NCBI GenBank assembly: GCA_965655095.1
Contig: OZ296655.1
Coordinates: 81,344,001 to 81,408,000, forward strand
Length of the DNA stretch: 64,000 nucleotides
Direction of reading: 5' to 3'
From: Haplodiscus bocki
Taxonomy: Eukaryota
Positions within the stretch are counted from its first letter, which is position 1; each line of letters opens with the position of its first letter. Below the pieces are notes generated by a model. The model saw only the letters and a program-made list of their open reading frames with translations, did not search any database and had not been told where the DNA came from. Position numbers and translations under genes: made by a program. Shown piece after piece: positions 970-52,444 of this stretch.

Positions 970-2170
970 AATGAATAGATGAAGCAATATTTGACAATTC
1001 GATTTTAAAAGAGGATTTTAGTAAGTTATAGCAAGAGGGAGCTAATTTAAATGATTCTGATAAAACTTCGATTCCTTTTTTGGGCAAAGTATTAAGTATC
1101 GTCAGTTAGGTAACGCATATTTTCAATTTGTTTTGACTCTCTAGCAAGACGGTGATAGTTTTGTAAATGATACTAGATGTCGTTAGCTTGGTAGATAATG
1201 CATTTGCACATCCTTTCAAAGAATCTACCAGGGCAACTACTAGAGGCTCTGATATTGAGGTGAACAAAAATGTTAGAGAGTTTTCTACTATTATGAGTGT
1301 TTTAACGAGTAAAAACGGAGATTTTTCATCACGTTTCGACAAAACTAGTGACATAACATTAATAATACAACATTGAAAGGAACACTGATTGATAACCAAA
1401 CAATTCAAGCAAATAAAGGGAAAATATTCTTTCAATTAGCATTAGAACACATTTTTGGATTTTGCAAAACATTTTAAAAAGTAACAAGAAATTTAGGTTC
1501 GCATATAACTTCGAAAACAAAAGATTTGCAAGATTTTGTTTATATTACTCTTTCACAGGCTACAATCATTTATGTAACATTAGACAAATTACATCTCTTT
1601 GTACCAAATTTTATACCAAGTCCGGACACACAAGTAACTTTCAAAGCATCAAAAAAACCTTTTTGTCCTACCATTCGATTCTTGGACTACCGATGGAAAG
1701 GTAATTAGGACATCAGAATATCAACTCCATGTAGGATCAACCGTGAAAATTAACCGTCCAAAATTTTTAATAGGTGCACATCAGACTCTAGTTAGTACTA
1801 GGTTCGCCAACAAAGCAATTAATGTATTAGGTTTCGATCAGGATGATATTAGAAAATACTTTGTAGAAATATATAGAATAAGATATCCTGAAGATTCTAT
1901 TTATCTCAATTACGCTACCAATGGTTATCTCGACCAATACAGAGATCTCAATTTTTTTTCTGAAGAATATGCTAAAGAACCACTATTGACACCACCTATA
2001 ACATATACTGATTTGAAAAAAGCTATTCAACTCAAGTCATTGATTTAAGATATCAAGTAGATCATGTGAACCATAAGAAACTTCAACTATTCGAACAATA
2101 GAGAGATGATACTGATAATGTTCATTCCGATGCAGGATTCTTTACTAATTTAATAAGACGTTCACCCTAA
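970..2170 (+). pseudogene. Hexon / double jelly-roll major capsid protein (frameshifted)
   Basis: Fragments LVDNAFAHPFKE...GSDIEVNK...STIMSVLTSK (1167-1376), LHLFVPNFIPSPDTQ (1526-1708) and RPKFLIGAHQ...YFVEIYRIRYP...YLDQYRDL (1743-2048) match my recollection of adintovirus-type MCP motifs. Confidence 0.75.
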
Positions 2171-2199
2171 AAGATTTCACGCAAAAATAAATTTTCAAG

Positions 2200-2545
2200 G
2201 ATAACATCAGGAGTGAAAGTGATTTGCAAAAAGCTTATAACGATCATATATATTCCGGAGATTCCCCAATAATAAAGGATTCGTAAATGATCACAATTGA
2301 GAACAAGGGGGTACCCATTGGACTTGTTTTTACAAAAGATACTAAATCGTTTTACTTTGACTCATTTGTTGGACAACCTGATAACGTTTTACTTCAACAA
2401 AAACCACAGTCAATCATTTTTCATATTTAATAAAATCAAGATATCAATAGTAGACTATGTGGGTTTATTTTGTTTATACTTTTCTTACCTATCAGAAAAA
2501 ATGGATTATTACAACGCTGTTTTGAAAATTTTTTTAGTTAAATGA
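2200..2545 (+). pseudogene. Adenain-type cysteine maturation protease (frameshifted)
   Basis: Read across frameshifts: QGGTHWTC (catalytic His), YFDSF (Asp), QDINSRLCGLFCLYF (oxyanion Gln, catalytic Cys), in the order typical of adenoviral/Polinton proteases. Confidence 0.8.
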
Positions 2546-3830
2546 AGGCCTAGGAAGGTATTTGGTAGTACCTCACCGGTTATTACAAAAATTTAAAGTG
2601 AAACATCTTTTTTGTGCAAAAAACAAACTTAAGACCTAACTACTTCGATAGTAAAATGGAATAAAATATTGACATGAAAAGTCAATTTAGAATCAGAAAT
2701 ATACCTTGTCTTGTAGAAAATAGAGACGCTGTTTGTAACTCATATGTTGAAAGTAATGTTTATCATCCAAGCTCATAAAGAAACTCAGCACAAGTTGACT
2801 TCAACGACAAAAATCTCGATAATGTACGTTTTGTCAAAATAAATTGCCTACCAGCCGGTCGAGAGCATTTAGAACCTAAGTTGTATGTTGATAGTGCAAT
2901 TTCTAATAGCGTAGGTGAATCATCTTTCATAAGAACAGACCTTGATGAAAATTTGAAACTAGATAAACACGAGTCTATAACAATTAACTCTACTTTAACA
3001 TGACCAAAACCAAAAATAGAATTACCTGCCAAAGCTTATGTTGATTCCTTATCTCAAAACGATAGAAAAAGAAGAAACATGTCTACAAGTTTCAGTTATC
3101 ACGATATTCAATCTGCTAATAAGGAGTTAACAAAGTTAGATATTATTAGTGTTAATGGAAGCCCTACTCCAGATGGCGAACCCTCAACTAAAAAATATAT
3201 TGATGATGATTTATTTAAAAATACTTCTCTCAGATTTATTGAAACAATACAGAACTGTCTCAAGAAATCAACCGGAATAGATATTTATAAACTCACTTAA
3301 TATGATTGATTGCAAATTGTAGAAACAACATTTATTAAAAACCCAAACCAAGGAGGACATCTCTTACAACAATGCAACAAAAAAGTAATGATAAAAAAAA
3401 TAATGAAAAAACACAAAAAATTTAATAGCATCCAAATCATTTTCTACTAATAGTAAGTGGGCCTCACAACGTTTCCTCCATTCGGCGATAGTTTTATGTA
3501 TATCGAAACACCAGTTTGGGTAATTCGGCTGATGAAAAAGTTTTAGTTAGTTTTGAAAGAACATATAATATTCAAAGTAGTAATGTTACTTAATATTAGG
3601 ATCGATTCTCAAATTTAACTAATGATTCTGTGTAATCGATGGGCCGCTCTAGATTTCGACTGCTATTAATTGATAATACGCGGAGTACACGATATCATAT
3701 ACCAAAAAGTATAGATACAGTAGTTCATCAACACAAGGGACTTTAGTTTTTAATATAGAATTATATGGTATTAAATTAATTTATGACCGAATAGATACAT
3801 CTCATGCAGACATGTGCATTAGTATGTTTC
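2542..3830 (+). pseudogene. Fibre-like repeat protein
   Basis: Four roughly 35-aa units ending in (K/S)xY(V/I)(D/E): DAVCNSYVE, LEPKLYVD, LPAKAYVD, PSTKKYIDD; N-terminal VFG motif. Confidence 0.5.
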
Positions 3831-21516: not shown

Positions 21517-23627
21517 TGTCATGCCCTCGCATAATGCAAGTAGGAATTAAATAATATGAATGTGAGAAGACTATGTTCTATGTATGAAGCCTTTATGCAA
21601 TTTATAATCACCTATTACATAGGCCTTCTATGCAGGTTTATAACCAACCGGGTTGAAGTCCCAGAGATAATCAGCGTTGTTTCAGAGTTTTGACGTTTTT
21701 CAGCGTTCATTCAGAGAACATGAAAAACATCAGCCCTGATCAGTGCTGTTCAGAACTGAAAATTTTAGCGCTGTTTCAGAGAGAAACAGCTCTGAATCAG
21801 CGCTCTTTTCTTAGCTCTGAAACAAAGAGTTTTCAGCGCTGAACAGTGCTGATTTATTCGGAATTAGCTTTGATATTAAAACATGCAGATGGGAATATCA
21901 AAATGTGATAACGTTGTCACAGGTGATGAAAGCGCTTGAAGTGGTCATTAAAAGGCATTCCTCGTTTTCAGAAAAAATAAATTCCCACATTATTCTGTAA
22001 AATAACAGCAAAAACATGAAGTACTTGAAATATTCTTCAAAATTCATCCGACTAAACAAGAGAATGCTTTTGAAAAAATGAACCAAATCAGTTTTTTTAC
22101 TTGAGCAGTAACAAAAAACCCAAATTTTCGGGTAATTGTTATAGCTTTTGCCAGCAAAAAAATTGTACAACTAAATTTCTGTTGCCCACTTCGTTTCGCA
22201 AATAGGGCGGAAAATTTGCTTTATGTGCCTCAAAACAGAGGTAATTCCAAAAATTTCGAGAAACATGCAAAATAAACCAAAAATTGTCAATCTCAATCCG
22301 TCAAAAAACAGCGCTCTTTCAGAGGAAACCAGCGCTGTTCAGGTCGGTATCCGCGCTGTTTCAAAAGAAAAAACAGCACTGAAACAGCTCTGTTCCGCGC
22401 TGATTTTAAGCATTGAAAATTTTCATTTTGACCGCTGTTCGGATTTTTTTAGGTAATGAAGAGCACTGAAACAGACCTGAAATCATTCTGAATGAGAATT
22501 GATCATTCTGAATGTCTTTGAGACATTAAACCGGGCACAACACGATATGAAGGCCTCTCTGTACTATTTTTTCTATGCAATCAGTTATGAACGTGATAAT
22601 GCATTTTATGTAATCTAAAGAGCTACATTGACATTATGGTGCACTGTTATACGCTATTGTCACGTTGCTTGTCAAAAACCTTGTGAAACGTTACAGCCAC
22701 ATCGTTAAACACCATCCATTCACTGCAGTATACTTCAGTAGTTAACGAGTTTTCATTCTGCTGCTAGGAGAAATTCTTTCACCCCTAAGCGCTGCTTCAT
22801 TGCTCTCGCAGTGCTCTCTAGCGAGGTGCGCTGTTCTTTCCATACAGCCATAAATTCGAATCAGTTTTAGAGCGCTATATTGAGCTGTGAAAATTGAGCT
22901 GGAATTTATTCATTTTTAAGCATAGCAATATCAAACAATTATGGCCACCACAAACAAGAGACGTCGGTTTGAGGGTAATCAAAGTGCAATTTGTGATGGA
23001 GGCCATAGTAATGGACATGAGACTAGTTTAGCGTTGTCATTTCAGCGTTAACGAAAGTGCTAAAACGAGTAATCAAAGGCTGTTCAGAATAGTGTCACGT
23101 GACCAATTACATCAGTTCACCGCTCAGCACAGGAAGCTCGAGTTTTTAGACCCGCAATACCGCCAAGATACAGCTAGTATGACACAGCTAGTTACCATTG
23201 AATCTCTACTCAGTTATCGTTTATAACGATTAACAGATCTCACTACACGCTAAAATCATCGGAAAAAATTTTAACCCGATTTTGTAAACTCAGCATGCTA
23301 TTTCAAAATACTAACATGGTACTAAAAGATGCGAGCCGAAGGGGTACACCAATTGTTAAAGGAGTAAACACTAACGAAACAGCTGACGAGATTCACAGTT
23401 CGAGTGGTCATGAAACAAAGGATATAAACAGCTCTACCATTAACTTAAGTCTTAACATTACTTACGAGGAGCTAGCAAGACTAATCGAAGCAGCTACTGA
23501 TTCGCTCACTAAACAGTTAGAATTACTCTGCGACTTGATGAAAGATCTCTGTCAAGCACCTCCGAAAATTTTTAAGAAACCACTGGCCTAATAAAAGTCC
23601 GTCGTTGTCCCACAGCAGTAGTTTGCA
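21517..23627 (+). repeat. 5' LTR of element A (interrupted by a MITE)
   Basis: Aligns with 35847-37027 at roughly 70-75% by eye once 21647-22537 is removed. Confidence 0.85.
21647..22535. mobile_element. MITE (889 bp) inserted in the 5' LTR
   Basis: TIRs CCGGGTTGAAGTCCCAGAGATAATCAG and CCGGTTTAATGTCTCAAAGACATTCAG (20/27); CAGCGCTG repeats at both ends; CA duplicated at both flanks; absent from the 3' LTR, which has a single CA. Confidence 0.85.
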
Positions 23628-25189: not shown

Positions 25190-28100
25190 AGCTTTACAAT
25201 TTCAAAAAAAGTAAAATTTTGCCCCTCTGGACACACCGGCGCCATTCAGCGTGTCGTGTCTGGAATTGAACATCGCCGCATTCTCGCAGCCAACCCCTCC
25301 GTTTAGTTCAATAAGTTTCCAGCAGACTACAGCATTCAGACTGCAAACGGTAACATTATACCAGTCCGTAAAAAGGAACTCTTCGTTTTCTTCGGGCAAG
25401 ACAAATTTTAAGGAAACTTTCATGGTAATACCAACGATGGGCAACATACCCATTGGAATATCAATATTTGGAAAATACTCAGCTACGCTAGATTTAAAAG
25501 ACAAACTAGTCCATTTCGCAGATCTCTGAGTGAAAAATTGATTGAAACATGTCGAGCGCTTGAACTAATAGCCACACAGAATGTAGTTGTATGTCCATTG
25601 CAGAAAGTACTTGTTCCAACAGTAGCAGCCACCCAACTCCAGATCTCAACAGGCGTCGCCGCAGCTTCACCATCTTTTTCGAGAAAATCTGATCTCATCG
25701 TGACACTGACACTAAACTAACTACAAGATGACTGCGCAACAAGCCAAGTGACGGAACCCAGAGCCGATACATTCACCATCAGCCAAAGGGACCATAGTTG
25801 CAAAGTTCAAAATCCTCACGACGGGGCAAGCTGACTACAATCACTTGATGTCACTAGAACAACTTACCCTTGTTTTCTCATACCCAGATGAAGCCACAAA
25901 TGTCATCTACTGGCTGCCTCAACCTCTTAAAGCACCAACATTAGACAAAAGATGGTAACTTTCGCCTCAGACGTGTGAGCACCCCAATCGTGCCAACTCC
26001 ATCACCAAACTCATCTACGAGGAGATTCTCAAATTGCGCGTTATCAAGAAATTGGACCGTACACTGGATGATAACCAACAGAAAGCATTCCTGAACCTTT
26101 CAGTTGCGAAGACTCTCTACTAACGCACGAAGAACACGCTGTGATAGAACAGTTGTTGACAACGTATCAACATATTTTTGCACACCATAGACTTGGTATA
26201 GGAATTAACAACGAGTTCAAGGATTAGTCAACTCCTACTCATAATGAATCAGTCCATGCGCAAAATCCACCAACATCGACGAACCTGAACAAGGATCACC
26301 GATGCCGCGCAACAAATGGTGGCAAACGTAAGTTTGTAAGCTTAATTGATCTCAATCCTATCACTGCCTACAAATGGGAGACGAGCAGTCTATCCAGTTT
26401 TTGTCATTCAACTTCGTTGCTGCGACCTTTGCTTACAGCAGAATCGTTCAGGGCTTGATTAGGTCGTTATCCACTTTTGACAGTGTTGTCCGAGATCACC
26501 ATTACTTGTTAGTGAAAATATATGGATGTGGCTACTACAAAGACAATCTGGACATAGCTGCCCAAACTGCGGAAGAATTACTTACCAACACTGAGTTTGT
26601 TTTCCTGCTCCTTAATATTGCCATTTTCAAACTATCAATGAAAAAATGTACGTCTAGTCAAGGTAAAATTGATTATTCATGTAAGTTGATGAGAAAACGA
26701 GGAAAAAAATTAGTTTTTTTTGGCAACCTCAAATTTCCCGCGTTGGTGAAACCACTGCCATGGTTTACAGGGTTTATTAACTTTTACAGGCAATATTTAT
26801 TTGGAGTAGCCAAACAATTGATACCACTGTATCAATCTGTACAGACGGACATCAAATTTCATTTAGGCCAAGGACATAAAGACGCCATTTTCGACAACAA
26901 CGAGAACCTAGCTAGAGCAGCCAAACTGACCCTACGACTGCCACTGCCTGACCAGTAGGCTATCAGCATATGCGCTGTGAGCCAGCACGCAGAAGGCTAT
27001 GTTGTGCTCAGCGAAAACTGTACAACGGAGAGTGAAGAGCAACCCAAGGCTTACGGACCGGTAGGTTTTGGTTTTAGGAGAGTAACCAGGGGACAGATGC
27101 CACTCACTATCGATGCGAAGAAACTTCTAGCCTTGCTTTTTGCCTTCAACGAGCTTGGCGACATGTTATGGGGATATAAAGAGTCCGTAATGGCAATGAC
27201 AGATAACGCAGCACTAACTCGATGTTTTCAGACGAAGCAAATCACTCGGAAGTTAGGGAATTTCTCTAGTTCAACTTCAATTTAGCTCATGCATTTAGCA
27301 TCGAAAATCCAAATGATAATTACCTGTCTCGCTTAGATATAGTAGCTACAGATTGGGTACACCTGATGTCGACAGAGTCAATGCCAGTCCACTGCATCGA
27401 GATTGAAATGGCTTCCAAGACGCCTAAAGAAGATGGGGACGAAGATGATTTCAGCACAACTAAAGTGAACTTGCTAGACCATAGGTTGCCTACAGGTCTA
27501 CCTGAGAAGCAAGTTGACGTAATTCTAACGATGGTCACCAGACTTGATGGAGTGTACGATGACGAACTCCGATGCAGACAAGCATTCATCAAACAGCAGC
27601 TCGAACGTCACGAAACTGGCACAGCATCTGACACAGATTACTTCATACAGTTTGTTACGAAGAGTTCGCACTATCTCACGATATTGAACCAAGTTAGCCG
27701 GCACAGGGATTTTACAGTAATCCTCGCTCAACCTAAGGACTTTGACATTCAGAGGTGAACCACATCGTCGACGTCATCCACATCCTCCGCGACGGCAAAC
27801 TCCCGCCTAACCATGTGAACTTGGAAGGCAGTTTTTTCCAAAAACTGCTTGAAACCCATAACAGACTTGAAGTAATCAACAATTTTCTCCACAGAAAGTA
27901 CTTTGATCACACAGGTAAAGTCAAAGGCAAACAAGTTATAGTGTCGGACAAAACAGTTGATGACATAATCAAGACACTGCATGATAACCCCATGCAGGAC
28001 ACCCTGACTAATCAAAAATGCTGCAAGAACTTCAGAAGAAGTTTTTACACCCTCAATAGATCTCCTAAGGTTCAGTGATACGTTGACAACTACCAAATGT

Positions 28101-29620
28101 GTTTTGTGACTAACCCTTGTAGGAATAGATGCATCTGCCTACCTCCAGAGCGAACTTGTGCGATGACATCATGGAGATCGATGTGGTAGGTGAAATGCCA
28201 CGAACTGACCGCTTATGATGTCTTTTCCCGACACTTGTTTCCCTTACCATTTTGTAAACCAGACAGTACATTGGTAGTTCACGTTCTGTTACACATTTTT
28301 TGAGCCACACGCTTACAATCTATTTTTCACGGATGAAGGAATCGCTTTTACCTTACCGGTCAAAACGCAGTTGATGCAAGCATCTGAAAACAAAATCAAC
28401 CGCGCCATTCCGACACATCCGCAAACTATTGTCATGGTCGAGTGGACTCATCAAAACCTGAAGAAGTTTTTGAAAACCAACGTCACCGCTGACACATCTT
28501 ACTGGGACCGATATGTCAAATTAACAATCATGGCTCATAACACCACATACCATTGAATCTTTAATTTGCACTTCGACTGAATTTTTGTATGGATGCGTTC
28601 CACACAACTCGCTAGACATCAGGGTCAGCCACCCAATGGAACCTCGTTGTAACAAAACTGACCTGAAAACATTGGTCGACGACGTCAATTAGAGTTACAA
28701 AGAAATCAATCCAAAAATTCCGAAGTTTTCTCAAAAAACAAGAAGTGTTAGAACGAGAGAGTTCAAATTCAGCCCTTGAAAGTAGGAGATGACACGTTCT
28801 TACTCAGACTCAAGTAAAACACACAATTAGACAAAACACAGTTTAGGACTTTCCTCTGGATTAGCCCAATTGAAGTGATGAAAATTTTCTCTTTCAAACT
28901 TCTTAGTTGGCAAAAGCGCATACTTTTCCGCGGTTTCATTCCATAAGAGAATGTCCCAGATAGTCAATTGAAATAATCACGGCTCTACAGCGATCCCGAA
29001 GTGCTCGACAAGCCGGAACTACTTAACAATTAAAAATTCCAGCTCAAAGTACAATCAGCAGTCGGTACTTGCGACAATGAGGCTTTTGATCACGAAAAAC
29101 CATGTAAAGTCAGAAATCCCCGCGATCCAGAGAAATCTCAGTCACCAGAAGTTGAGAACTCACTCTGATGTCACGGCAGCTATTCCTCATCAGGATTTTT
29201 ACCATGACCCCGTTGTGCAACCCCACCTGGAGTCTAAGTAGTGCGACAACAGGAACTCCGGCCATCAGCAGCTGGACAGATTCACTAGGATGTCCCAATT
29301 CCTGCAGTCACATCACGAGAAGAGTGCCTTTGTAACAGTGACGTAGAAATTGAACCACTTGATTCGATGATTGACTCTCAAACAGCTAATGAACCAATCG
29401 TCAGATAACCAAGCTTTAATGCAATCTACGTCACAACTTGACGCCACGCATTTATCAAATCTACTTAAAGCTCGACCTGTGCAAAGAGCCTGAGCTGCAG
29501 TTTTTGATGATAAGCAAAACTGAAAAACACGAGACCCCCTGTTCAACTGTTTGCAAAACATATTGGTAATGATACCAGGCACCCACGTTACGCGTTGATT
29601 GGTCCTACCAGTCTTCGCAT
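25190..29620 (+). pseudogene. pol: pol of element A: protease, RT (partly deleted), RNase H, integrase
   Basis: LDT(G)A at about 25227 (with an AC duplication); RT remnant FAYSRIVQGL...CGYYKDNLDIAA (YVDD destroyed); RNase H SQHAEGYVV...MTDNAAL; integrase MEIDVVG / TDEG / MVEWTH / HNTTYH. Confidence 0.85.
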
Positions 29621-29679
29621 AAGGAGCATGCCCTCGTCCGTATTTTTCACCTCCATTTATTTTGTAAAATCGACAATCC

Positions 29680-32600
29680 GACTATAGGTTTTTCGAAAAA
29701 CAAAGTGTTTCTACTACATTTTTCGGCTGATAGTCTCCCAAAGAGCACGATATCCAAATCCTGCTAGTATTTTGGGCAGATGATAAACGCTTCAACGTAA
29801 ACGCAACATTAGGCACCTCACACAACACTTATGTCTTCATGCAATCTTTCAATATAACTTTACACACCTTAGGTTAACCCCAAAAATTCATATCCATAAA
29901 ATGCAACTTAGCACGCTTCTTACCCTTCCTTATGCGAATGGTACCGCTTGCATTGTCAGGTTCAGCTAAAACTTTGACTTATCAAAAAAGCAATTCTTGA
30001 ACGGCTACACGCAACCGGAACATGCCAGCGAGTACTCACAATGCCCAAACACACAAAGTCTGTGCTACCACACACTCCACTCTCCCTAAAAGTACATAAC
30101 TTCCCAAACCACATCTACTACCAAAAAAATACCATAATTTAATCGCAAAGAGAAAAACTCAGTTTTTGACACACCGATTCTTCCGCTAGCCTACAACTTA
30201 AATGGCAATTAATTCATCTAAGGGCTCTACAACCTTGGCAACTTCTTCAGAAAACAAACACAGTATAATTAATATTCGTACATAGCTCAGCAACCCACTC
30301 TTCATCACTCACCATACCTATTATCTCTTCCACCACCCAAATTGAACGGTTCTCGAAAAATTTGATATCATGCAAGAAATCATGAAACTATGTCGTTTTT
30401 AACACAAAGTGATGTTGATAAAGCGTTCATATCACTTTTCAGGGAGCAATGAGCTATCCGATACTAACCACTATAAGTCAAAACTAAGGCGTCACTGGAA
30501 GTAGCCAAAAAACAACTTAGTTTTTTGCTAAACCAAACCACAACGACAAACAAAAAAGCTTTTTTTGTCCTTGCCTCAGGATCTCGAACCACCTCAGCTT
30601 AGATTTTTTAAAAACTGAGTCCACAACTCAAAAAAAATCAAGTTAGGCAGCAAAAATTGAATTTCTGTACCAAACAAAAACGACTTCATCTAAAATAGTC
30701 TAATTCTTCTCGCAATGCTTTCTCTTTCAACGTTTCGTCTCTTTTTCTCTGTGTTCTTCCATTTTTATTTTTTCGGTTTGACGCAACCTCAAAACAACTA
30801 ATTTGACTACAGACGTCCGACTAAATTTTGACAAAGTCCTGGATTACAGCCCGAAAACAACACATCAGTTTCACTTTAAGAAAGTTCGCGGGTCTTCAAT
30901 AGCAAAATTCACATATTTCGCATTTTTTTACGTCTGCAAATCAACCAGAACAAGGGAACAACCACTCTTGCCCTAAGCTCCACAACGCCAGCTTCTTCTT
31001 GCAACGACGGCCGCGACGAACGACGAAGAAGTACCAGCAACAACCATGATAGGTGACGCCCATTTCCGTTGTGCAGGCCCACCTTGTACCTCGAAGTTGA
31101 CTCGTCCATGCTAGCTTCAGAATATCCACTCCTCCAGCACGCAAGGTGACAATAATTTCCCATGCAAGAGCTCTTGACTACGTACGTAGACTCAACACAA
31201 TGAACTCACATATTCCGGTTCCTCAAGACGCTTGAGATTCTGCGCCACCTTCACACAACTCGGCACCACCTTGTTTTCAATGACGCGACATCACGGTGGC
31301 CATAAAAGTTTCAGGCACTGTTCACCGCACTTGGAATTTCATTGAAACTCAAAGAAACGATTATAACCTCTTCGGAACCCGCAATATGCCCTCCAACACT
31401 CGCCTCGACGATCACGACTTGCACCATTTTATGCACTAGTTGGAACAACTTCCACCCATCCCAGCCCGATCAGAAGCGATATGAATCAGGGGAAATGAGT
31501 TCCGTCAATTCCTCCCGCTACCAATTCTTCTGCAGCTCAGACAATTCCAAGTACTGAAGACCCAATTTCTCTAGCTCACTATCAAAATCGGGTGCATTGG
31601 AGCCATCGACATCTACTGCTCCATTCAACCAGACATCGCCCTCCCGAATTGGCGCACCACAGCACGAATCACCTTCCTCGATGTCACATGCAACTGCTGT
31701 GCATCCTGTTCATTCTCAGTACAGAACTAACAGCCGAATTCCTCCAAGAACTTGCACTGCGTTGCGGTCTTCAAAGGTAGGTCCTGATCATGCCACTCAC
31801 GTAGCAGTCCACGCACATCCTCCTTGACTGGGACCAAATCACTGCGGTCACAAGCTCCATGAGACATAGTGCAATACCCGAGAACCCGAGACCTCCTACT
31901 TCACAAAAGAGCACTGGTCCAAAGCATTCAATTATAGAGATATGGACAGTTCTCCGCATTTAAAACAGGACACAGCATGTCAACTCATGAAACCAAAGCG
32001 CTCGAAGTTGGTCCCCCACTTCACCCAAAACAACAAGATCCTGCAGCAAATAGGACTAGGACGAGTTCAACACTTCAGTTGTGACACACTTTTTTGATAA
32101 ACCACCCAACAACACTATGCACGTCACCCTGTAACATACTTAATGATCTTGACTATGGGAACCATAAGTGCAAACTGAGCTCGCAAAGTTCTGTCTGCCG
32201 CCAGATCACGCTCAACTATGACTGCATTGGAGCAGATGACATCATTCCCTTTTCTGTTCTCCACGAGTTAAGCCAACAAGTCGTTCCGGTGCTCAACTAT
32301 TTCCGTCAGAAATCCACGCATCTGTCGGAATGGTATTTTAATCGCCAAGAAGGGCTAAAAAAACAACGAACATCAGTTAGCGCGATTCACAAACCTCGGT
32401 AGACCTCAATTTCCGAAACTTTATACCCTCATTGTTCTGAGACTGGCTACCCGAGACATACACTTCAGTACCAACCTTTTGTTTCCATTTCGTAATTCAC
32501 TACAATTTTCAACCAGACCTTCAGAACACACCAAAAATTACTAACCGCATTTAAGCATGGGAAAATTTCCAGCTCTTAGAGAGTTCGGCACGACTGTAGG

Positions 32601-35600
32601 CGAATCCACAAGCAGTCGACCACCCCAGTTGGATCCACCCCAAGGAAGTGGATATAGCTTACCCCAGGGACCCCATTTTCTGCCAATATCTATCAACTCC
32701 AGGCACGCCTACTTTTTCTGAAACAAAACCACAGAAATGGGCCCAGCTTTATGAAAAACAAGCACACGAGGTCCATTGACTGTGTTAGAGCAGGAGTTCC
32801 AATTCGCAAGCGCCTAAGCACCTGATACACGTCCTCCTCCCACGACGTCTTCACTACGGCAGTACCCTTAACAATGTTTTAATCTGTCCGTCATCAATGC
32901 AGCTCTGAAATGTTCGTGTTGCACCCCCGCTGGGCCAAGTGAAGTGCATAGATGACAGGACTCCCAAAACAAACACCCGCACTCTCCAAAACGAGAGGGA
33001 ACTGTCGGTAAAAGATGACACTCTAAAACGGACAATAACACGATTACACGGAACTGACTCAGCCAGGTTATCTTGCACGGCTTCTTTTCATAGAACAAGT
33101 ACCACAAAAAACCCTAACGAAAATCCATTTCTAGATGCCAATCCTCTGTCTTTCTTTTTTTCGTTTCCTGTCTCTTTAACCTTTTTGCTCTTTTCTTTGT
33201 TTTCGTCTACCTTACAGACTAAATTCAGCAAAAAACCACCGCTAACACGAAAAACATGAGTACTTGACACGCCTGCCAATGCAAGGTCCACTCCTGCAAC
33301 TGTTTGACACGGATGAAGTGGACGGTCAAATTCTCCAATTATCGCATCAAAACATGGAAGCCAAGTCCTTTCACCTGCGCGTCAATGAGGTGACAAATCT
33401 AGAATTTGTCAAGCCTGCTCTGCATCGGGTTTTTCGGCCGCTCCGGCAGCTTGCTACAACTCAACCTCCGCGTCTGGCACATCGTTGACGCTCAGCGCAT
33501 AGGCCGAATCCAAATGCACGTTGGCTGACTTGAAGACTTTCGCTCGCTGGCGCTTCCGCTTTGTAGGAGACAATACTTTTCAGTGGTGCATACCCAGCTG
33601 CAGATGGTGCCTCTTCTCCCGCACTTGGAGCCCCTCAGTGTTACAGTGCTCCGGACTGCCGTAAGTCCTCGTCGTCCTATTGAAAGATACATCTTACTGA
33701 TTCTGCAATGAGCAAATTTATCCTTGACACCCTGTCAACAAAGGAACCGCACCAACAACAAAAATCACGCCCGTCATGAAATATTGTGGTTCAAACAATT
33801 GAATTGGTTTCTCTCATACGCACAACCAGAAAGTAACACCTCAAAAGCATACCTATGTCCGTTCTGGAACCTAACACAGTTTTAGCCTCTGAAAAATCAC
33901 ATTTTTGTTTTTCCAGCCGACTAGGTCTCACACAAAACGTCTAAGTAACGTCGTTGAGCAACATATACCACGATCTTACTAGTGTCTTACCAGATGTGGC
34001 TCCTGTCTATTGCCTCGGGAGAAAGAAACAACAGTTGGCTCAGTGATGACAAGCGACCTAACCACAGCTCCTCCGGGAAGTGAAGACTCAACAAAAACAG
34101 GGACATCAGCAATAGACTACCCAGGTATTGGACACTCACACACATCACAGGAGAAAAGAGATAGCATTCTCGGCGCCCTTTGTGACGAAGCAGGGACATG
34201 GGGACAACAGCCACCACAGCAATGGCATACTGGCTGACCCCATCTTGCATAAAACTAGAGTGAAGACGTTCTAATCCAGGTACACTGATACTAGACAGCG
34301 GGAGAGTGCCATCAATGCGAACTCGAACATAAAGAGGACGATCATGGAAATGGAGACTTCCGAGCCGACAGACCTACAGCACAAAAGGGACACCTAATCA
34401 GATCAAACGAGGAGAATACATCCGTTACAAAGCACAAGATTACCAACCAAATGATCCTCGAAGTGTCTGGCGAAGCTCCGAAACAATAGTTTTGTTGATT
34501 CCGCTGATATCCTGAAAATATTGATCCTCTTGGGTTAATTTTTCCAACTGACGAAAATTGCTGTCAGTCAATATTGAATCTAGAAGAGCAGTTACCTTAA
34601 ACAATAAAATAAAACAACCAAACACCTAGAGAGCAAAACCCGTACCCACCTTCGCTGACAGGTCAAAAATTAATACTTACTGTATGGAGGTCTATGTAGC
34701 AACCTAACATTTTCGGGTTCAGCCACGAAGTCATCCTCAGTATCATCAACTTGAGAAGATCGGGGCTAAAAGTGCTCTTTTCTACCGATCTCTGTCGTTG
34801 TCCCGATGAAACGCAATTGGGATGAACATCATTAAAAATCTCATCAACCACCGCGTTAATCAAGGGACTCGACAGATCATTAGGTTCAGATTTAGCTAGA
34901 TGGTCTGAAAAAATGGAAAAGAAAACGTACAACGAAAGGACACAGAGAAAACTCTACGGAAATCCCAAGGACCACGAACAACACACCGCGAGGCTGATCA
35001 ACTCGTACTGTTGCAAATTTGGAAGATGAAGCGTTCCAATTGAATAGCTAATCAGCCATGAATGAAACCAATTCCGCACGTTTTTCTAAGCTGATTTTCA
35101 ATTGAATATTTTTTGAATAGGAATCCAATGAAGTGATTTGAACGAGTTTGAAGATGAGAAATCCACGACGAAAGCAGGACGGCAGAGAAAGTCAAATCAA
35201 AGATGTGGAACAAGCCAGAATCAGTGAGTGAATTCAGTTTGAGCTTATTTGCTTTTGCTGAGGCCAAGTTGTTTGTAACCTTAGTATTTTTTCAGTGATG
35301 AAACAAAGACTGAAAAGAAGGAGAGAAAAAGAAATTCACTTCGCACAAAAAGATGGCGTGGCTATCATCCATGAAATAGGAGGTCCAAGATGCAGGACAG
35401 AAATTTATGTTTTCCCTGGTTCCCGCACTTTCAACTTTACCGCAAAAGAACATCCCCGAAGGATTTTTAAATACCGGACAAGTGGATGTTGTCACCAGGA
35501 GGGCGCCACGAGACCAACTAGACAAACTGATTGAAAAGTCTACTGACGGCCCGAGATGATACTGCTGAAAGTTGCAAGTTAATGTTGCTTGATTGATAAT

Positions 35601-35820
35601 TTAGAACCAAGGTTACCAGCCAATCAAAATACAATCAACTGACAAAAACAAGACCTTATCGCGATGAAATGTGCCCACTGTGCTACACCTGCCATTCTCC
35701 CAATATAGCGAAGAACTAGAACCAATTCCCAAGAAAACCAACGGGGGAACGATTTAGCTGGTGCCAGCAAAGGAAGGAAGCCGTTCCTGGCCGATCAATA
35801 ACATCTGCACAATAGGGTGA
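29680..35820 (+). pseudogene. About 6 kb accessory coding-like region downstream of pol (unknown products)
   Basis: GC-richer coding-like blocks (e.g. ORFs 32094-32402, 33264-33488, 35295-35534) separated by pyrimidine tracts, all inside the LTR pair. Confidence 0.5.
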
Positions 35821-35828
35821 CTCCCTTC

Positions 35829-35846
35829 AAAAAGCGGGAGCAGGAG
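35829..35846 (+). other. Polypurine tract of element A
   Basis: AAAAAGCGGGAGCAGGAG immediately before the TG of the 3' LTR. Confidence 0.75.
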
Positions 35847-37027
35847 TGGTATGCTCTTGCATGATTGGAATATGAACTGCATAAAATGATTATGCGAGTA
35901 CCTTCCGTTATATGTATGAAGCCCTTATACCTTTCACATACGCATTTTATGCAGTTTTATACCCACAACACAATGTGAATGTCTTCATTTACTATTCTTT
36001 TCTTCCAATCGGTTATGAACGTGACTATGCATTACATGTATGAAAAACGACTACAATAAACTCACTGTGTACTATCATACGCTATCATTCCATTGCTTGT
36101 CAAGACACCTGTGAAACGTTACAGTCACATCGTCGAGCACTATGCGTTTGTTGCAATATACTTGAGTTATTTAACGAGTTTTCATTTTCGTGCTGGGAGT
36201 AATTCATCGAACCCTAAACTGAGGTTCATTGCTGAGCGATGTCTGGCGAGCCCTGTTGCTCGTACCATACGGCCATAATTACGAATCAATTTTAGGGCGA
36301 TTTATTGAGCCGCCATATATGCGCTGGAAGCTATCAATTCTTAGGCATTTCCATATCAAACAATTATCGCCACCAAAAACAACAGACTTTGGCGTGAGGC
36401 CAATGAGGTGAAATTTGTATTTGTGGCCATAGTAATAGATTTGAGGCTTGTTTAGCGTTGTCACCTAGCCAATGGCAGTGCAAGATAGTGCAGGCTAGTG
36501 ACCACTTAATATCAATTGACCGCCCAGCACGGAAAACTCGAGTCTTTAGACTCGCAGTAACTATCAAGTGACGAAACAACTCTCTTTGTTTGAATTTCTA
36601 CTCAGCAACCGTTTATCACGAATAACAGATCTCATTATAGTAATAAATTCATCTTGTTAAAATTCTAACCCGATTTTGTAACCTCATCAAAGTAATTCAA
36701 AGATTTAAGCTAGTGCTAACGGTTTGCGAACCGAAGTGAGTACCCCCATTATGAAAAGATTAAACACTAGCAAAACTACTGATGAGAGTCATAGTTTGAG
36801 TGGTCATGAACCAGAGGTTGTCAACAGTGCTACCAGTAGCGTAGGTACCCCCTTTACATTCGAGGAGGTAGCCAGGCAGATCAGAGCAGCTGCTGATCCG
36901 CTAACTAAACAGTTAGAACGACTCAGCTATTTAATGAAGGAGCTCAGTCAAGCCCTTCCGAAACGTAATAAAGAAACCACTGGCTTGGTTCAAGTTCCAT
37001 CAAGGCCCCACAGCAGTAGGTTTAACA
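35847..37027 (+). repeat. 3' LTR of element A (1181 bp)
   Basis: TG...AACA followed by TSD ATCGG; contains ORF 36724-37038, paralogous to 23295-23591. Confidence 0.88.
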
Positions 37028-37032
37028 ATCGG

Positions 37033-37810
37033 AACTGAATTTTTCTGGTCCATACTGAAATTTACTACAGATCACCATTGTCTCTTGCAAGTCTGTTAAC
37101 GTTCATGAAGATGTCTAAGAGCCACTTAACATCTATAAAACTCACTGATCGTCTCTCAGGGTCTCTGAATAGAACTTTTTCCGGTAGTTCTTCATAATTT
37201 CGTGGATTGTTTCCAGGTACGTCAATTGCGGAACGAAACTCCGATTCACCGTCCAATTGCCTCAAAGAAGCGATGAACAAAATTGTAGATTTTACTTGCA
37301 TCACTCACCTAAGATACAGCAAAAACTTGATTTTTTGGGTTTTTTAGTCAACGCAAGTAACAAACCTGGCATGGGTCATTTTTTCAAAAACAATTCCCGT
37401 TTACTGGGATCAGTTTTCAAGAAAATTTCTGAAAATTTGAGGTTTTGCTGTCATTTTTCACACTATTGAGGAAATTCAGATTTTCTTCAATACCAGGAAA
37501 GCCATTTTAGTGACCACTTCATGCATTCTCATCCTCTCTGACTGCGTTATCATGATCTGATCTCCATGAGCTAACATCAGAGTTGATTCAGAGTAAATCA
37601 CCACTGAACCAGCACTGTTCAGCGCTGAAAGGCAAATGTTTCAGAGCTCAGAAAACCAGCGCTAAACAGCGCTGATTCAGAATTGATTCTCTCTGAAACA
37701 ACGCTTTTGAGCGCTGATCAGCGTTGAATTTTTTATTTTTGAAAAGTGCTGCTTTAGAGAATATCGGACGTGATTAACTATGAAGTAGCGCTGATATCCG
37801 TCGCCGGTCA
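37033..37810. mobile_element. Right part of the CAGCGCTG-type MITE split by element A
   Basis: Dense CAGCGCTG/TCAGAG repeats at 37570-37800; the right terminus is decayed. Confidence 0.5.
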
Positions 37811-46399: not shown

Positions 46400-47990
46400 A
46401 CCTTACTTCTAGTGTTGGAAGCGTAGTAAAATTTTTCTTTGTGGATCCTGGGCTGATTTTCTGTTGCTGGTATGGTACATGACGCCGTCAAAAGCGGCAG
46501 CTTGTGACATTCCCAATGGTATGATAGTTATTGCGCCGCTCTGTAGGCCAGCCAGGTAAGCTTACGTTTTCATTTGTCTTTGCCGACTTGTTTATCACGA
46601 CTCGGCCGTGCGTTTTAGACTACCAGCAGTCGTTTCCTCAAGGATCTGTTAGTGGCACTCGCCACATACAATGCATCCTGAGGTTCACGTGTCCTTTCCA
46701 TAATGAGCATGTAGTGACAATACTTCGTTTTCCCGCATAACTGAAATGATATGGAGTAGTTCAGGATTGTTGGGCGTGGGTGTGTATCAGAAAGGTCAAC
46801 CGGCTTGAATATTTTTGTTGGCCCTTTGATGGATGGCGTCGGAGATTGTGGTGAATCTCTAGTTGGCAATGACGATCGGAGTTCAAAAGGCTGGGCCCGG
46901 ATTGGAAGTAGTAATTCGTTGATGCCGATGAGACATTATGTGTTTGTTTGCTCAGTTGCGAATCGGTTGCGGCTGATGGGGATAATGTGGGCATGTTGAA
47001 TTCATAAGTAGGGATTGTGACGTGAGCTACGTCGGCCGAGTCATTCGGGTGGATCACAAATTGGTTTAGCCATTGAGGATCAACGTCTTTTGTCACCTCT
47101 TGGTCGGACAATGGATATTGTTTTTCGATGTCTTCGTTGGTTGATTGATAGATCGGTTCTGTTTGCATCAAGTTGTCTTCGTGCATCAAAAACTGGCTTG
47201 TAGTTTATTCAACTGCTTTCAATTTCAATTGTTTGGGAGCCGTTTTCGAAATTTATTAAGTTTTCGTGAAAGGGTTGGAAGAATATTATCGAGTTTGATG
47301 TGAGCAGGAAAGAAGTTGACTGAAAAGCGTTTGGAAAGGGTGGGAAAAAGGTTGGACGACGCCGAACTTCTGTCCCTTTCCAGAAAAGCGGCATATGCTT
47401 TTGATATGATTCGCGAGTATTAAAAATCAATGGTAAAGATTGATGAGAGGATGAATGTGGGTGGCGTTGTGAGCGTTGTTTTTTAATATGAAGTAATCGT
47501 GGAGATTGTTATCTAGTTTTTTTGATGAGTAATGTAACTAAAAGGGAGCAGTTTTGAGTGATCCTAATGGTGTTGATAGGTAATTGAGATTTATCCAATC
47601 AGATGGTTGGTATGTCTTCCGTTTTAAATCAAGGTTCAATAAAGCAGGAAAAATGAGTGAAAAGAATATTGTAGTTCAATGAATGAGCAATGTGACATGA
47701 TAATGCTTTAGATGTAGGTGATTGATGGGGAAATTTAAGTCAGTTCCGGCAGAAGTTTACATTACTTGATGTAGATAAGTATGTACTTGTATGTTTAGGT
47801 CGGAGAACAGGAATACCACTTAGTTTGGACGTGAATTCATTTTGTACAGCCACGAAATCCACATTTTGTACATTTATTTGTCTCAATTTTTAATTCTAAC
47901 ATGCTTTTGGAAAAAAGCATCAAGAACTACTCTATCAGTGAAGTTCTTCCATTTTTTCTTTCACTTTGTAAACCCCACGTTTCACATTCA
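46400..47990 (-). pseudogene. Accessory ORF region of element B downstream of pol
   Basis: ORFs 47209-47430, 46761-47189 and 46615-46869 (Ser/Thr/Pro/Gln-rich) lie between pol and the 3' LTR. Confidence 0.4.
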
Positions 47991-47999
47991 TCTGATTAT

Positions 48000-50900
48000 A
48001 AACTTATTTCTGAAATGAGATTTCTATGAGAATGAGCGAATTTGCAGGTAACTTACCACAAACTTTCATAGGTTTTCGCTGTTTAGAGAAGATTTCCATT
48101 ACGCAAGAGAAGAATCAAACTAAAGAGGATCAGCAACTAGTATTTTCTCTTGCAAGTGCAGTTTCTGAAATGATCGAGATCCCGGAGTGTGATAAATTAC
48201 CTGTTGAGACTATGCCAGTATTACGAAGTGCTCAGCCTGGAAATACCATTGGCAAAACATTGCGTAACACGAAGGTTGATCGAGTGGGTTCTGCGCAAAG
48301 TAGTGGGTATTCTGATGTGAATGCCTACTGTGAGGACAAGTTGTGGTCTCTGAGTGAGGGTGAGTTGCAAATTATAGTCGAAGTGGGTGGAGAGTCTATC
48401 GCACAATTTCTTTGTGGGCAGATTAGTAGTAGTGGAGCTGCGATGGTTGTCCAGGGTTGAAGTGAGGAAGTTTTTGGAATGAGGAGCTCGTGTGCAATTC
48501 AGTTCGACAACAGTGAGAACTTTGATTGAAACTAGTAATGCAATTTCTGTCGGCATAGGCCCTAGTGAATCCCCCGGGAAACGTTTTGCTGTTGTGACTA
48601 TTAGAACTGTTGAAGAAGAGGAAGTTCTTTCTGGAGAACCGTTGTGTGAGGAGAGTAGGAAATCCAAAAATGATGAATATAGTAGTTTAGCAACCTCGAC
48701 TGGAGGCCTGACGACTGAAATTGAACTTTCTTTTTTGCCTATGGTATGGCAAGGTACATTTACTTGTCGTGTTGGCAAGTCTTTAAGGAGTGGTGCATCT
48801 TTGGATTGCGAATGACCTCCGAGGGAATAGCTGAGTGTTCACGGTATTTTGCCACAGCGAAGCTAGTTTTATCCGAGCCAGTCCACCAAAACAATTCTGA
48901 AAGACTTCTTTGGTTTAAATCCTGTCACAGTAATTGAAAATGGCCACACAACAAAGCCTCAGTGTGGATCAGGTGTTTCAGTTTCCTCGAGTCGTTGGAT
49001 CGGAATTTACTTTGGCTTCGTTTGGATTTCTTGATGATTTTTTGTCTCGTGCTCGTGGGAGTGGTTCTGTTGACTTTGGTTGACTTTTCAGAAAATCACC
49101 TTCTTCCAGTGTGATAGGCACGGCTGTTGGGGATAGTGTTCGGTCTCAGTCACGGTAATCCTTGCATACTGTGACTAGTTTGACGGTAACTTCTGGTAGT
49201 GAGATCTACGCCAATTCTCGTCAAAAGATTGTCAATGAGTCAAATTTTTCTTCATTATCTGGAATTGCTGAAGAGGTCGACCCAGAAGACATGCCACCCG
49301 CTGTTTTGTCTAAGCAGGAATGTTTGAGGAATGCTACAGGGAAAAAGAAGGCGGTTGATCAGTGTAGGTTATCTCGTGAGGGGAGACTGAACCCGATGTC
49401 TAGATGTGGTGGTGATGAGGAGGGGAAGGTTTGGGTCTCCGCCGAGGAAAACGTGCAAAGAGTTCAAAGGACAAAGGTGTTTGCAACGGGGCCAGAAGAT
49501 CCAATGCACAACCGACACAAGTTTCATTGCATGTTTCGCCGTGTCAATGTGTCGATGAGAGCCCGTGGCAATTATGAGATTAAACATCCCTACGAGAGTC
49601 TTAACCATTTGCTCCAATATCAGCGTTACAGAGAGAATATACTGTACGCTTGCTGTGAGGGGGAAGGACGCCAAAGATTTACATGGAGTACGGTCTATTG
49701 CAGAGAGTGAGCTTTCTGTGGACTGTGAGATCCTCAAAAGGAACATAAATGGCTTTTTCATTATGATGGGATAGAGTGGAAGCCGTTTCTGTTCACTAGC
49801 AATGACGACCGTGTTCGCAGCCAGAATGAGCTGCTGACAACATTTCTGAAGGTTGGAGGCCAATGGTGTAGAAGATTTTTGGAATGAAGTCGGGATACTG
49901 ACTGGCAATTCAGCTGAGACGTCTGAAATCAATTGGAGTCACAAACATATCAGTATAAGCAGTTGGATATTGGATTATACTGTGACATTTTTTTGACATG
50001 CTAGCTATAATAGGCGCGTTAGTTTGAGCGTGTCTGTCATGAAATAGTTTTTAAGTGGCTTCGAAAAATTGCCATATTATGAGAACATAGGCATTGTTGA
50101 TCTGATATCAATTGTAAATCGTAATTATACGTTTTGACCGTGTTGTTGTATTGCAGTAATCAGTTTTTTGTGCGATTGCTGGGGCATTTGAAAGTAATGA
50201 TGAATAAATTTTGTTTTACATCACTGGAGTTTCAGACAGAAAGGAGAAACCGAAAAGTGAGCGTTGGTTTGTGGAAGGGAAACTGACTGTTGGAAGTGTG
50301 CTTGACGCGTTGCGGGCGGGATATTCCTGAAGTCAGTTGACTACGTTTGGCAATGATCTGCGAGCTGTGTCGGAAAAACCCCAGAGTGTGTGCTGTGGCA
50401 GCGTTACTGATGATGTCTTAAAAACGCTATACAGAGAGCCTGCCAGTGAAATTCGGTTACACTATCCTTTTGCCATACATGTTCTGCAGCTTGAGAAACT
50501 GTTTAGGAAAACTAGTTAAAGCGTTAAAGCTCGGATCGACATGATTGCTCCGGTGAAATCATTGTTACCCCGATTAGTGGATTTTCTGTATCCGAAGTGG
50601 TTGCAAATACTCGTTATCTGCACACAGTTCGTAAATTTGTTGTCAGAAGTGTGAAGTGTGACGTGAGTTTGGTATTGAGTGAATTGTGTTGAAAAGCTGT
50701 TGAAGCTGAACGTTAGGATCCTAGCAATATACATTTGCTCGTGGAAGAGTTCAGTCAGCAGTGGGCGGCTGAAGGTTTGTAGCTACATCGAGGCGACGAG
50801 TCACAGACAAGATTTCCAGAACATGAAAGGCCATTTCAGTCGATATCGAGAGAAAATTCTTTCGGAAAGTCTAGGTTTCCTAAGTATTTGATGACTTGGT

Positions 50901-52330
50901 TTGTTTTAGCTTCAAGGATTTGATTCACATGTCACTTGTAATTCTTTCTTCCTGTCGCTGGTAGAAGTGTTCAATGCAAGTCTACTATCAATCCTTTGGC
51001 ACGTATGATGTGCAGCGACGAGATCAAAAGTTTTTTCTGTTTGGGCAACTATTGAGCTTTTTGTACCGTTTGTTGAGACAAATGGTCACTAAATCCATAT
51101 TACCTCGTGAGGATAAATGGCACGCCATCCATAATTTTGTTTCTGGTGGAAAATTTTTTCTTGCTGTTAGTGCCTTCATGCAAAACTGACTTTTTGGTTC
51201 TGCTGCGTTGCCTCTCGTGAGGAGTAGCGTGGATGTTGAGGATGTCGAGGAAGAAAAGTCGAACACACGTGTTGACGTCTAACATAGTAAACGAATCTCT
51301 GACGCCCTATATTAAACCTGCCAGAAGTAGTTTGAAATGAATCTGTGACGGCCTGTTGTCTCATAATTTGTGGATATCCGATCTTGTGGATGGCCTGCAA
51401 GTTTTTGACTACCTTTGAATTGTCAACAGATCAGGCTGCGTTGTGCTTTGGTTGATTGTACAACAAATTTAGCTTTCGGGGATTGGTGCCTAAAGGGACA
51501 AGTACTATCCTCGTAGAAGAGTTTATAGACTTGGTGCTTGATTTGCCGTAGAGCTATGTGAGTGATGACGTTAGTGGCTAGAGAATGAGGACTTGATTAC
51601 GTTTTTGTGAAAATGTCCCGAGTTTTGGCGGAAAACCAATTTATAAACGACGTTCCGCCTTAGTTGTCTTCGTGTAAAACCTTTCCCGCCTGTGTTTTCT
51701 GCTGTACAGGTTGGTTCAACCGCTTCTAAATCCAGGGGTCCCAAATTGGCCTGAAAAATTTGAGCCGGTAGAGAGTTGCTTGTTGTGTTATGTTGCTTGA
51801 ACCGTTATTAAGACTGACGTTGATTCAATTATCTCATTTGTAGAGCTGTTGCACACCTTCGCTGGTACCGCACTGCAGATTTGTTGTGGTGCGTGGTCCT
51901 ATGTACATATTCATGTAAAGTAACAAAATATTAAAGTCCTTGATGAATGGAATTCGAGGAGTTCGTTCTCTGTCAAGAGGTGATGACGCCAACTTGAGTT
52001 TCGTTACACCTGATACATGATGCCGTCAGAATCTTGTTCATAGTCAGCCCCAAAAATTGATGAAGCGAACGCCCGTTCTCTATTGAAATGTTGTGATTGT
52101 ATTTCCTTCTTTGCTCCATATTCGGGGGCTTTGTCAAACTGGACTTCTGTTTGTAAACTTTGAGTTTTGTGTGCTGAAGCATATATTGTAGTTTTAATTA
52201 GGTAAGTCACGAATGGATGGGACTGAAGGGCGAGAGCCTGCAAACCCTCCGGGGGGTCCTACTCCTTGGGAGGTCAGAGATAGTGAGCTTGTATTGGACT
52301 TGCTTCACTAATCCTCCTTACCTGAAAAAA
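48000..52330 (+). mobile_element. Inserted cassette encoding a decayed zinc-finger / hAT-like protein, ending in a hairpin and A-run
   Basis: Opposite strand to the host Gypsy; KFHCM.RVNVSMRARGNYEIKH.Y finger (about 49520-49600); GT-AG intron candidates (49953-50156); C-terminal CPEFWRK...FRLSCL block. Left boundary approximate. Confidence 0.45.
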
Positions 52331-52444
52331 TTTTTTGTTATGAGCCGATGGCGGTTACAAGAAAAAAAACGAAAAACAAAAGAAAAAAAAAGAAAAAAAT
52401 GGCTCTGTGGGCCATAATACTGATCAAATTTTTGCACCTTTTAT

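Follow-up and report, generated by a model that had tools for sequence, protein, structure and literature searches.

A conserved antisense gene, predicted to be multiply spliced and possibly transposase-derived, behind pol in Ty3/Gypsy retrotransposons of Haplodiscus bocki

The window analysed here is a stretch of 64,000 nucleotides from the genome of Haplodiscus bocki (GenBank assembly GCA_965655095.1, contig OZ296655.1, positions 81,344,001 to 81,408,000 of the forward strand; positions below are those of the window). It contains two old long terminal repeat (LTR) elements, element A and, on the minus strand, element B. The LTRs of element A are 71% identical (22536-23624 against 35964-37022, over 1099 nt) and those of element B 82%. 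Element A is a Ty3/Gypsy LTR retrotransposon because of its pol order (protease, reverse transcriptase, RNase H, integrase), the TG..CA ends of the LTRs, a primer-binding site starting with TGG and target-site duplications of 5 bp. The pol order is that of the Pfam matches in intact relatives, and the tblastx blocks in element A are ordered alike, with an RT_RNaseH match at 26959-27282 (E = 3.7e-6). The LTR ends and the primer-binding site were read in young relatives, where the 5-bp duplication is present in three of three cases; in element A itself the LTR pair and a polypurine tract are present, and decay has gone too far for the primer-binding site and the target duplication to be read. 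Inside element A, behind pol, lies an accessory region of about 6 kb (29680-35820). A preliminary description, made from the letters of this copy, had proposed that it holds several sense-strand accessory proteins, partitioned by tracts resembling splice acceptors. According to our analysis, it is reasonably probable that the region is instead a decayed copy of one conserved antisense gene, likely spliced from at least seven exons, whose protein of about 1,050 residues is probably a disarmed transposase serving as a DNA-binding helper.

As an accessory region that once was coding, the 6 kb form an integral part of the element. A DNA search for the family of element A (family A) in the 1.5-Gb host genome gave 52 matches, which apart from the self match are 64-74% identical to the window copy. 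Of the 20 loci fetched, 6 align without a break from pol on and across the region, over 8.5 kb or more. A nested insertion, which the preliminary description had named as the outcome that would speak against it, is thus ruled out: the region aligns unbroken with pol in other copies and belongs to the family, and the proposal of a complex Gypsy lineage with an accessory region behind pol holds to this extent. For the analysis of coding signal, the window copy was aligned with those 22 of 49 loci that span 5 kb or more and have no large insertion, giving 23 copies; the remaining 27 were partial or too distant. All family A copies found are old, and there was no young one among the candidates scored (40 of 154 in the DNA search, 107 of 8318 and 150 of 417).

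Across the 23 copies, blocks with a three-base period alternate with non-periodic blocks, and in every periodic block it is the third codon position of a minus-strand frame, one without a shared stop, that varies. The fraction of stops is 0.009-0.017 in the claimed antisense frames, compared with 0.008 in a sense control at the end of pol (28920-29523, where the plus frame has no stops common to the copies) and 0.039-0.079 in the spacer at 29700-30700. The remaining frames have 0.024-0.10, save two plus-strand frames in the block at 32144-32354. Omega, the ratio of nonsynonymous to synonymous substitution rates (dN/dS), is 0.32-0.67 in the claimed frames and 0.8-1.4 in frames other than the plus frame in register with them. 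At the borders of the blocks, minus-strand GT and AG are present in 14-19 of 19-22 copies, and the six gaps so delimited are all frame-compatible. Read from the side of the 3' LTR, the predicted exons number at least seven, from about 34904 to 30886, and add up to about 1,050 codons (Table 1). We consider a spliced antisense gene, with a promoter that is internal or in the 3' LTR, to be very likely, the splicing itself being predicted. The spacer of about 1 kb (29690-30700) is common to the family and carries a coding signal in none of the frames.

In the window the gene is broken throughout, and this copy is a relic. The last four exons together hold 17 stops and 18 frameshifting indels, distributed as 9 and 10 in the exon at 30886-31953, 2 and 5 in that at 32546-33022, 5 and 3 in the exon with the zinc finger (33264-33812), and one stop at 32144-32354. 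Two splice sites are not kept, among them the acceptor of the last exon. The finger is still recognizable at 33493-33714 (E = 2.7e-4; hhalign to the finger of the young relatives, E = 4.5e-5), the exon at 32546-33022 matches the RNase H-like domain of these relatives, and that at 30886-31953 corresponds, by homology to the model of a young relative, to a helical region with a basic tail.

Table 1. Features of element A, and the homologous gene in element B, by position in the window.
Feature	Position	Strand	Basis and remarks
5' LTR, element A	22536-23624	+	71% identity to 35964-37022; first part not alignable
Decayed pol, element A (protease, reverse transcriptase, RNase H, integrase)	25200-29523	+	RT_RNaseH match; tblastx to intact relatives; start approximate
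Family-wide spacer	29690-30700		All six frames lack codon periodicity and have omega 0.84-0.96
U-rich tract (A/G-rich on the antisense strand)	30716-30775	+	Behind the antisense stop by about 110 nt; no conserved acceptor
Last predicted exon	30886-31953	-	Stop fraction 0.015; omega 0.40; acceptor AG 14/20; stop 11/16
Predicted exon	32144-32354	-	Stop fraction 0.009; omega 0.42; AG 17/22; GT 19/21; donor not kept in window copy
Predicted exon	32546-33022	-	Stop fraction 0.009; omega 0.44; AG 16/21; GT 15/22
Predicted phase-0 intron	33023-33263	-	Donor GT 17/19; acceptor 16/21; column identity 0.57-0.58; no periodicity
Predicted exon with C2H2/BED-like zinc finger	33264-33812	-	Stop fraction 0.013; omega 0.32; AG 14/22
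Predicted upstream exon (weaker signal)	33991-34321	-	Stop fraction 0.007-0.012; omega 0.67; GT 18/21; AG 17/22
Predicted upstream exon	34448-34579	-	Omega 0.32; GT 18/22; AG 17/22
Predicted upstream exon	34681-34904	-	Stop fraction 0.013-0.017; GT 18/22; AG 12/22; 5' border uncertain, start codon not located
Polypurine tract	35829-35846	+	Purine run ahead of TG in aligned copies
3' LTR, element A	35847-37022	+	LTR pair match; alignment of copies
Decayed homolog of the antisense gene, element B	48032-51920	+	tblastn with young antisense open reading frames, E down to 5e-37; profile matches

A homologous gene is present in younger elements of the same genome. A search with reverse transcriptase gave ten loci, eight of them young (LTRs 98.6-100% identical), and long antisense open reading frames (ORFs) stand behind pol in all eight young elements. 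Between two of these elements, dN/dS is 0.16, 0.08 and 0.085 for three antisense ORFs and 0.09 for pol, against 1.1-1.3 on the opposite strand. When GT-AG gaps are removed, three in family 1 and five in family 2, the gene is open over 1288, 1293, 1276, 870 and 944 codons in five of nine copies, the longest unspliced frame in family 2 being 499. In comparison with a more distant copy, the splice dinucleotides are kept, and introns are 45-51% identical versus 57-68% for exons. Of the 99 best-scoring copies, a sample biased to close copies, 86 have a last exon free of stops. The products of family A and of the young elements align over 638 columns (hhalign probability 98%, E = 1.8e-13; reversed control, E = 0.38). 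Four runs of unknown kind, covering part of one young copy, gave 15 listed joints and 83 further ones; among the 15 listed, none falls at a predicted intron, which is uninformative either way.

In a tree of the elements of this genome, family A, the young families and a clade with env form separate groups. It is unrooted and leaves out element B and one other row with too little cover, and a single origin of the gene is outside its reach. Intron positions differ among the three lineages (compare L051, L053/L054 and window 30886-34904), which hints at intron loss inside the retroelement. A phase-0 intron after the finger exon is common to all, and the remaining introns are shared pairwise, as judged by exon lengths and phases. 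Homolog searches returned many unnamed proteins (1336 at E <= 0.001 in one search), from which the host range is not readable. L145, the one compared among eight metagenome loci, is 88-93% identical to the copies of this genome and, because of this close match, gives no evidence of other hosts. A phage search gave no match.

The predicted protein has a CxxC..H..H finger in all three lineages. In Pfam, 13 of 33 members match zf-BED, though weakly (best E = 0.0083), and 6 of 33 the Spin-doc finger. The exon that follows is predicted to fold as a helix, three strands, a helix, a strand and a helix (beta1-beta2-beta3-alpha-beta4-alpha); its model has a predicted local distance difference test (pLDDT) score of 61-85 over residues 1-90 and is poor beyond. 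The top Foldseek rows for this model are the UvrC RNase H domain, the integrase of human immunodeficiency virus (HIV), Mos1 and Hermes (best E = 0.015), the match to Hermes having a probability of 0.95 and a root-mean-square deviation (rmsd) of 4.5 over 96 columns (E = 0.047). The last exon, helical by a low-confidence prediction (mean pLDDT 52), has no fold match and ends in a basic run that by eye resembles a nuclear signal. The order of finger, predicted RNase H-like core and helical tail has the layout of hAT transposases and suggests a disarmed DNA transposase. Where strands 1 and 4 end, none of the DDE-type aspartates is conserved in 39 sequences, strand 4 ending in S-G-G-S and strand 1 being variable; no aspartate at these ends is common to the three lineages, and the third catalytic residue was not placed. 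Pfam searches with single antisense ORFs gave no match above E 0.03, and those with 89 homologs of the last exon nothing coherent, with PF05699 (dimerisation domain) in 0 of 89 at E <= 1. There was likewise no match to PF04195 (TRP28) at E <= 1, to Dimer_Tnp_hAT or DUF4371, or in sequence searches of the PDB. No inverted repeat of at least 40 nt was found around the gene, and the duplications at the LTR ends are of 5 bp, not 8 bp.

Several of our results weigh against this interpretation of the region. In the exon at 32144-32354 two plus-strand frames are also poor in stops (0.014-0.016), the plus frame in register shadows the claimed frames at an omega of 0.45-0.72, and the control at the end of pol is weak (0.72). 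At 21% of non-coding positions, sharing of a single dinucleotide is as high as 70%, and the splice sites were picked with the frames known, so that six compatible phases out of six overstate the odds. The spliced product is a prediction from genomic sequence. Four of the nine young copies are broken in the gene (672, 1016, 381 and 492), one of them with LTRs that are 99.9% identical; because broken copies exist among young insertions, the gene may act in trans, or may be dispensable for a given insertion. As for the protein, no Foldseek match reaches an E value of 0.001 or better, a wide fold search gave at best a Z of 6.8 (visna integrase; rmsd 2.7, 79 aligned), a tie with actin-like folds, and hhalign to the hAT transposases of this genome aligns the finger only, at a non-significant E of 0.03-0.07.

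That the region encodes several sense accessory proteins, translated from LTR-driven mRNAs spliced to 30812 and 33217, now seems to us barely credible. The letters on which this was based are present in the window copy: a U-rich tract at 33136-33216 that ends in TTACAG, with CTAAC at 33114 and an ATG at 33256, a further tract at 30716-30775 with CTACAG at 30807-30812, and a corresponding tract in element B (52345-52411, minus strand). The two long tracts are family-wide, pyrimidines making up 80% or more of the one in 18 of 20 other copies and of the other in 15 of 21, and young relatives have one sense ORF near the 3' LTR that is under selection. However, the AG at 33216-33217 is present in 0 of 20 other copies, CTAAC in 0 of 18, the ATG in 1 of 18 and the AG at 30811-30812 in 2 of 21, while the supposed third tract, at 29640-29670, is pyrimidine-rich in 0 of 21 (median 0.57). 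Because AG, CTAAC and ATG are not common to the family, the acceptors at 30812, 33217 and 29670 were rejected; they are chance features of one decayed copy and do not partition the region. The ATG at 33256 overlaps the reverse complement of a minus-strand donor, which reads CAG|GTACGT in most copies (GT at 33263 in 17 of 19), and the ORF at 33264-33488, to which the preliminary description joined it by a frameshift, is open on the plus strand in at most 4 of 20 copies, compared with 9 of 20 for the minus frame. No family-wide sense ORF was found at 29680-35820 in the aligned copies, where the sense frames carry shared stops; the reading frames conserved across copies are those of the antisense strand. 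The earlier statement that env is lacking was borne out, as we saw no env-like ORF in element A.

For the protein, the main alternative is that the antisense spliced gene came from a host gene or another virus and acts as a Rev- or CERV-like factor for RNA export or packaging, or as a tether for integrase. We regard this as unlikely, yet as an alternative to be taken seriously, since no sequence link between the protein and hAT is significant, RNase H-like folds are widespread (Z here below 8), the last exon is without a fold match and Cer1, according to the abstract of its description, employs a spliced accessory protein for export of its genomic RNA (PMC10309623). It is at odds with the succession of finger, RNase H-like domain and helical part, which by layout is that of the hAT transposases of this genome, with the BED and Spin-doc fingers as main Pfam signal and with the place of Hermes among the top Foldseek rows. 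An active transposase that moves the unit, or part of it, as DNA would agree with the RNase H-like predicted fold, the BED-like finger and the strong purifying selection, but the catalytic aspartates are missing as described above, the TG..CA ends and 5-bp duplications are typical of integrase, and in 16 of 20 loci pol lies no more than 10 kb from the finger exon, on the strand opposite to it. We therefore consider this reading very improbable.

Under the preferred reading of a disarmed transposase encoded by a spliced antisense gene, transcription would start from an antisense promoter near or in the 3' LTR, and the pre-mRNA would be spliced as that of a host gene. On the genomic RNA, which is of the opposite strand, the introns would not be splicing substrates, and they would be copied into each new insertion. 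That they survive retrotransposition in this way, hidden from the spliceosome in the packaged RNA, we think quite likely. The gene may have originated when a hAT-like transposon inserted in inverted orientation and then lost its ends and its catalytic residues; we hold this nearly as probable as not, and the absence of significant sequence support counts on the contrary side. The finger-bearing, disarmed transposase might then have become a nuclear regulator of the element, acting for example against silencing. Because selection on it is as strong as on pol, the protein would have helped its lineage, and we tentatively posit a putative function as regulator or anti-silencing factor on the element's own DNA, rather than as RNA exporter or integrase tether. 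Taken as a whole, the scenario that an ancient Gypsy clade took in a DNA transposon backwards, disarmed its transposase and kept it as an intron-rich antisense gene, whose product binds the DNA of the element against silencing or for steering expression, is conceivable, with somewhat more doubt than belief on our side. In this scenario the normal replication cycle would not remove the introns, which nonetheless vary in position by lineage.

Further observations concern the tracts and the setting of the elements. The tract at 33136-33216 and the ATG at 33256 lie inside the antisense intron at 33023-33263, and the tract at 30716-30775 lies just behind the antisense stop. Further U-rich tracts without a conserved AG are present in element B (52345-52411) and at L031:8235-8291. 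In 12 of 21 other copies the supposed third tract (29640-29655), which lies downstream of the antisense stop, resembles a minus-strand donor (GAG|GTGAG). Inverted repeat arms at 21767-22124 and 37334-37705 (71% over 382 nt) flank element A, which therefore sits within an older inverted-repeat element. The gag ORF starts inside the LTR (window 23202-23591 and 36709-37038); in the young relative L031 (LTR 4-1778, gag 1190-3007) the primer-binding site falls within the gag coding sequence.

Other ORFs accompany the elements as well. Young relatives (L051:5742-6725) and element B (46475-46753, minus strand) have a proline- and serine-rich sense ORF of 250-360 amino acids that reaches the 3' LTR; it is divergent from the antisense gene, has a dN/dS of 0.18-0.50 and matches nothing in Pfam. 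A sense ORF like ORF4 of the young elements was sought at 35000-35840 of family A, and none was seen. In other Gypsy families (L055:5862-7082, L058:4505-5581, L061:4479-5540), which form the separate env-bearing clade of this genome, an env-like ORF has a basic cleavage site and a hydrophobic run. These families also have a different antisense ORF of 354-407 amino acids with an H-x-E...H pattern, which we take to be cupin/JmjC-like, although there is no JmjC match in Pfam. In or beside the LTR elements at L068:3127-9998 and L059:8186-9980, genes judged by eye to be Polinton/Maverick-like resemble an ATPase, an integrase, a capsid-like protein and a DNA polymerase.

Loss of introns is what one expects of retroelements, whose additional genes usually consist of a single ORF. 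Here, one genome holds three divergent Gypsy lineages with a selected, predicted multi-intron antisense gene of about 1,000 codons. In this way an LTR element could bring an ordinary gene with introns through reverse transcription, and the route may be widely missed, as ORF-based annotation splits such genes into unrelated pieces. If the proposed origin is true, a retroelement has domesticated a class II transposase for its own use. The many young natural copies offer material on the function of antisense accessory genes, a question described as open in the plant work discussed below, and also let the gain and loss of introns inside a retroelement be examined.

The closest parallels are from plants and retroviruses. 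In plant Retand elements, regions of 2.9-6.6 kb between pol and the 3' LTR contain antisense ORFs whose role is given as unknown and which are described as probably DNA-binding (PMC11963269), and gene23 of maize Grande has its own antisense promoter, its authors urging that antisense and spliced transcripts be examined (PMC7264820). The term "intron" does not occur in the main text of either. The gene described here resembles Retand/Tat (TRP28, PF04195) and Grande gene23 in the long stretch that separates pol from the 3' LTR, the conserved antisense coding and the predicted DNA-binding or nuclear role. It differs from those genes, which are described as ORFs, in being one gene of 900-1300 codons with three to six or more predicted introns. 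It differs also in its BED-like finger and RNase H-like fold, in the lack of a PF04195 match and in its apparently animal genome. HBZ of human T-cell leukaemia virus type 1 (HTLV-1) is spliced. Like HBZ and other retroviral antisense genes, our gene would be driven from the 3' end of the provirus and have a regulatory role (PMC7264820). Unlike HBZ, it is carried by a retrotransposon without env and is much longer and intron-rich; no sequence relation was tested or seen.

With hAT transposases (Hermes, PDB 4d1q; the ZBED/DUF4371 group) the predicted protein would have in common the BED-like finger, the predicted RNase H-like core and the helical region. Unlike in these, the catalytic aspartates are not kept, no profile match is significant past the finger, and the gene is carried by an LTR element and not between inverted repeats. 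Like CERV of Caenorhabditis elegans Cer1, it would encode an accessory protein of an animal LTR retrotransposon, that of CERV being made from a spliced mRNA and splicing being predicted here; by the framing of the abstract, the splice sites of CERV are on the genomic RNA strand, whereas our predicted introns are on the opposite one (PMC10309623). Unlike errantivirus-like, env-bearing Gypsy elements, element A has no conserved sense ORF in the region. With the terms searched, no similar gene was found in the available text on extra ORFs of rotifer LTR elements (PMC5408684), a metazoan env survey (PMC13524379), a review of giant transposons (PMC6431247) or an acoel genome paper (PMC9911081). In the open literature we found no intron-rich antisense gene in an LTR retrotransposon; Repbase, Dfam, subscription papers and supplements could hold one. 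We posit that in its mode of action this gene probably resembles the antisense accessory genes of plant elements and retroviruses but stands outside those families, as an intron-rich and possibly transposase-derived gene of three divergent Gypsy lineages.

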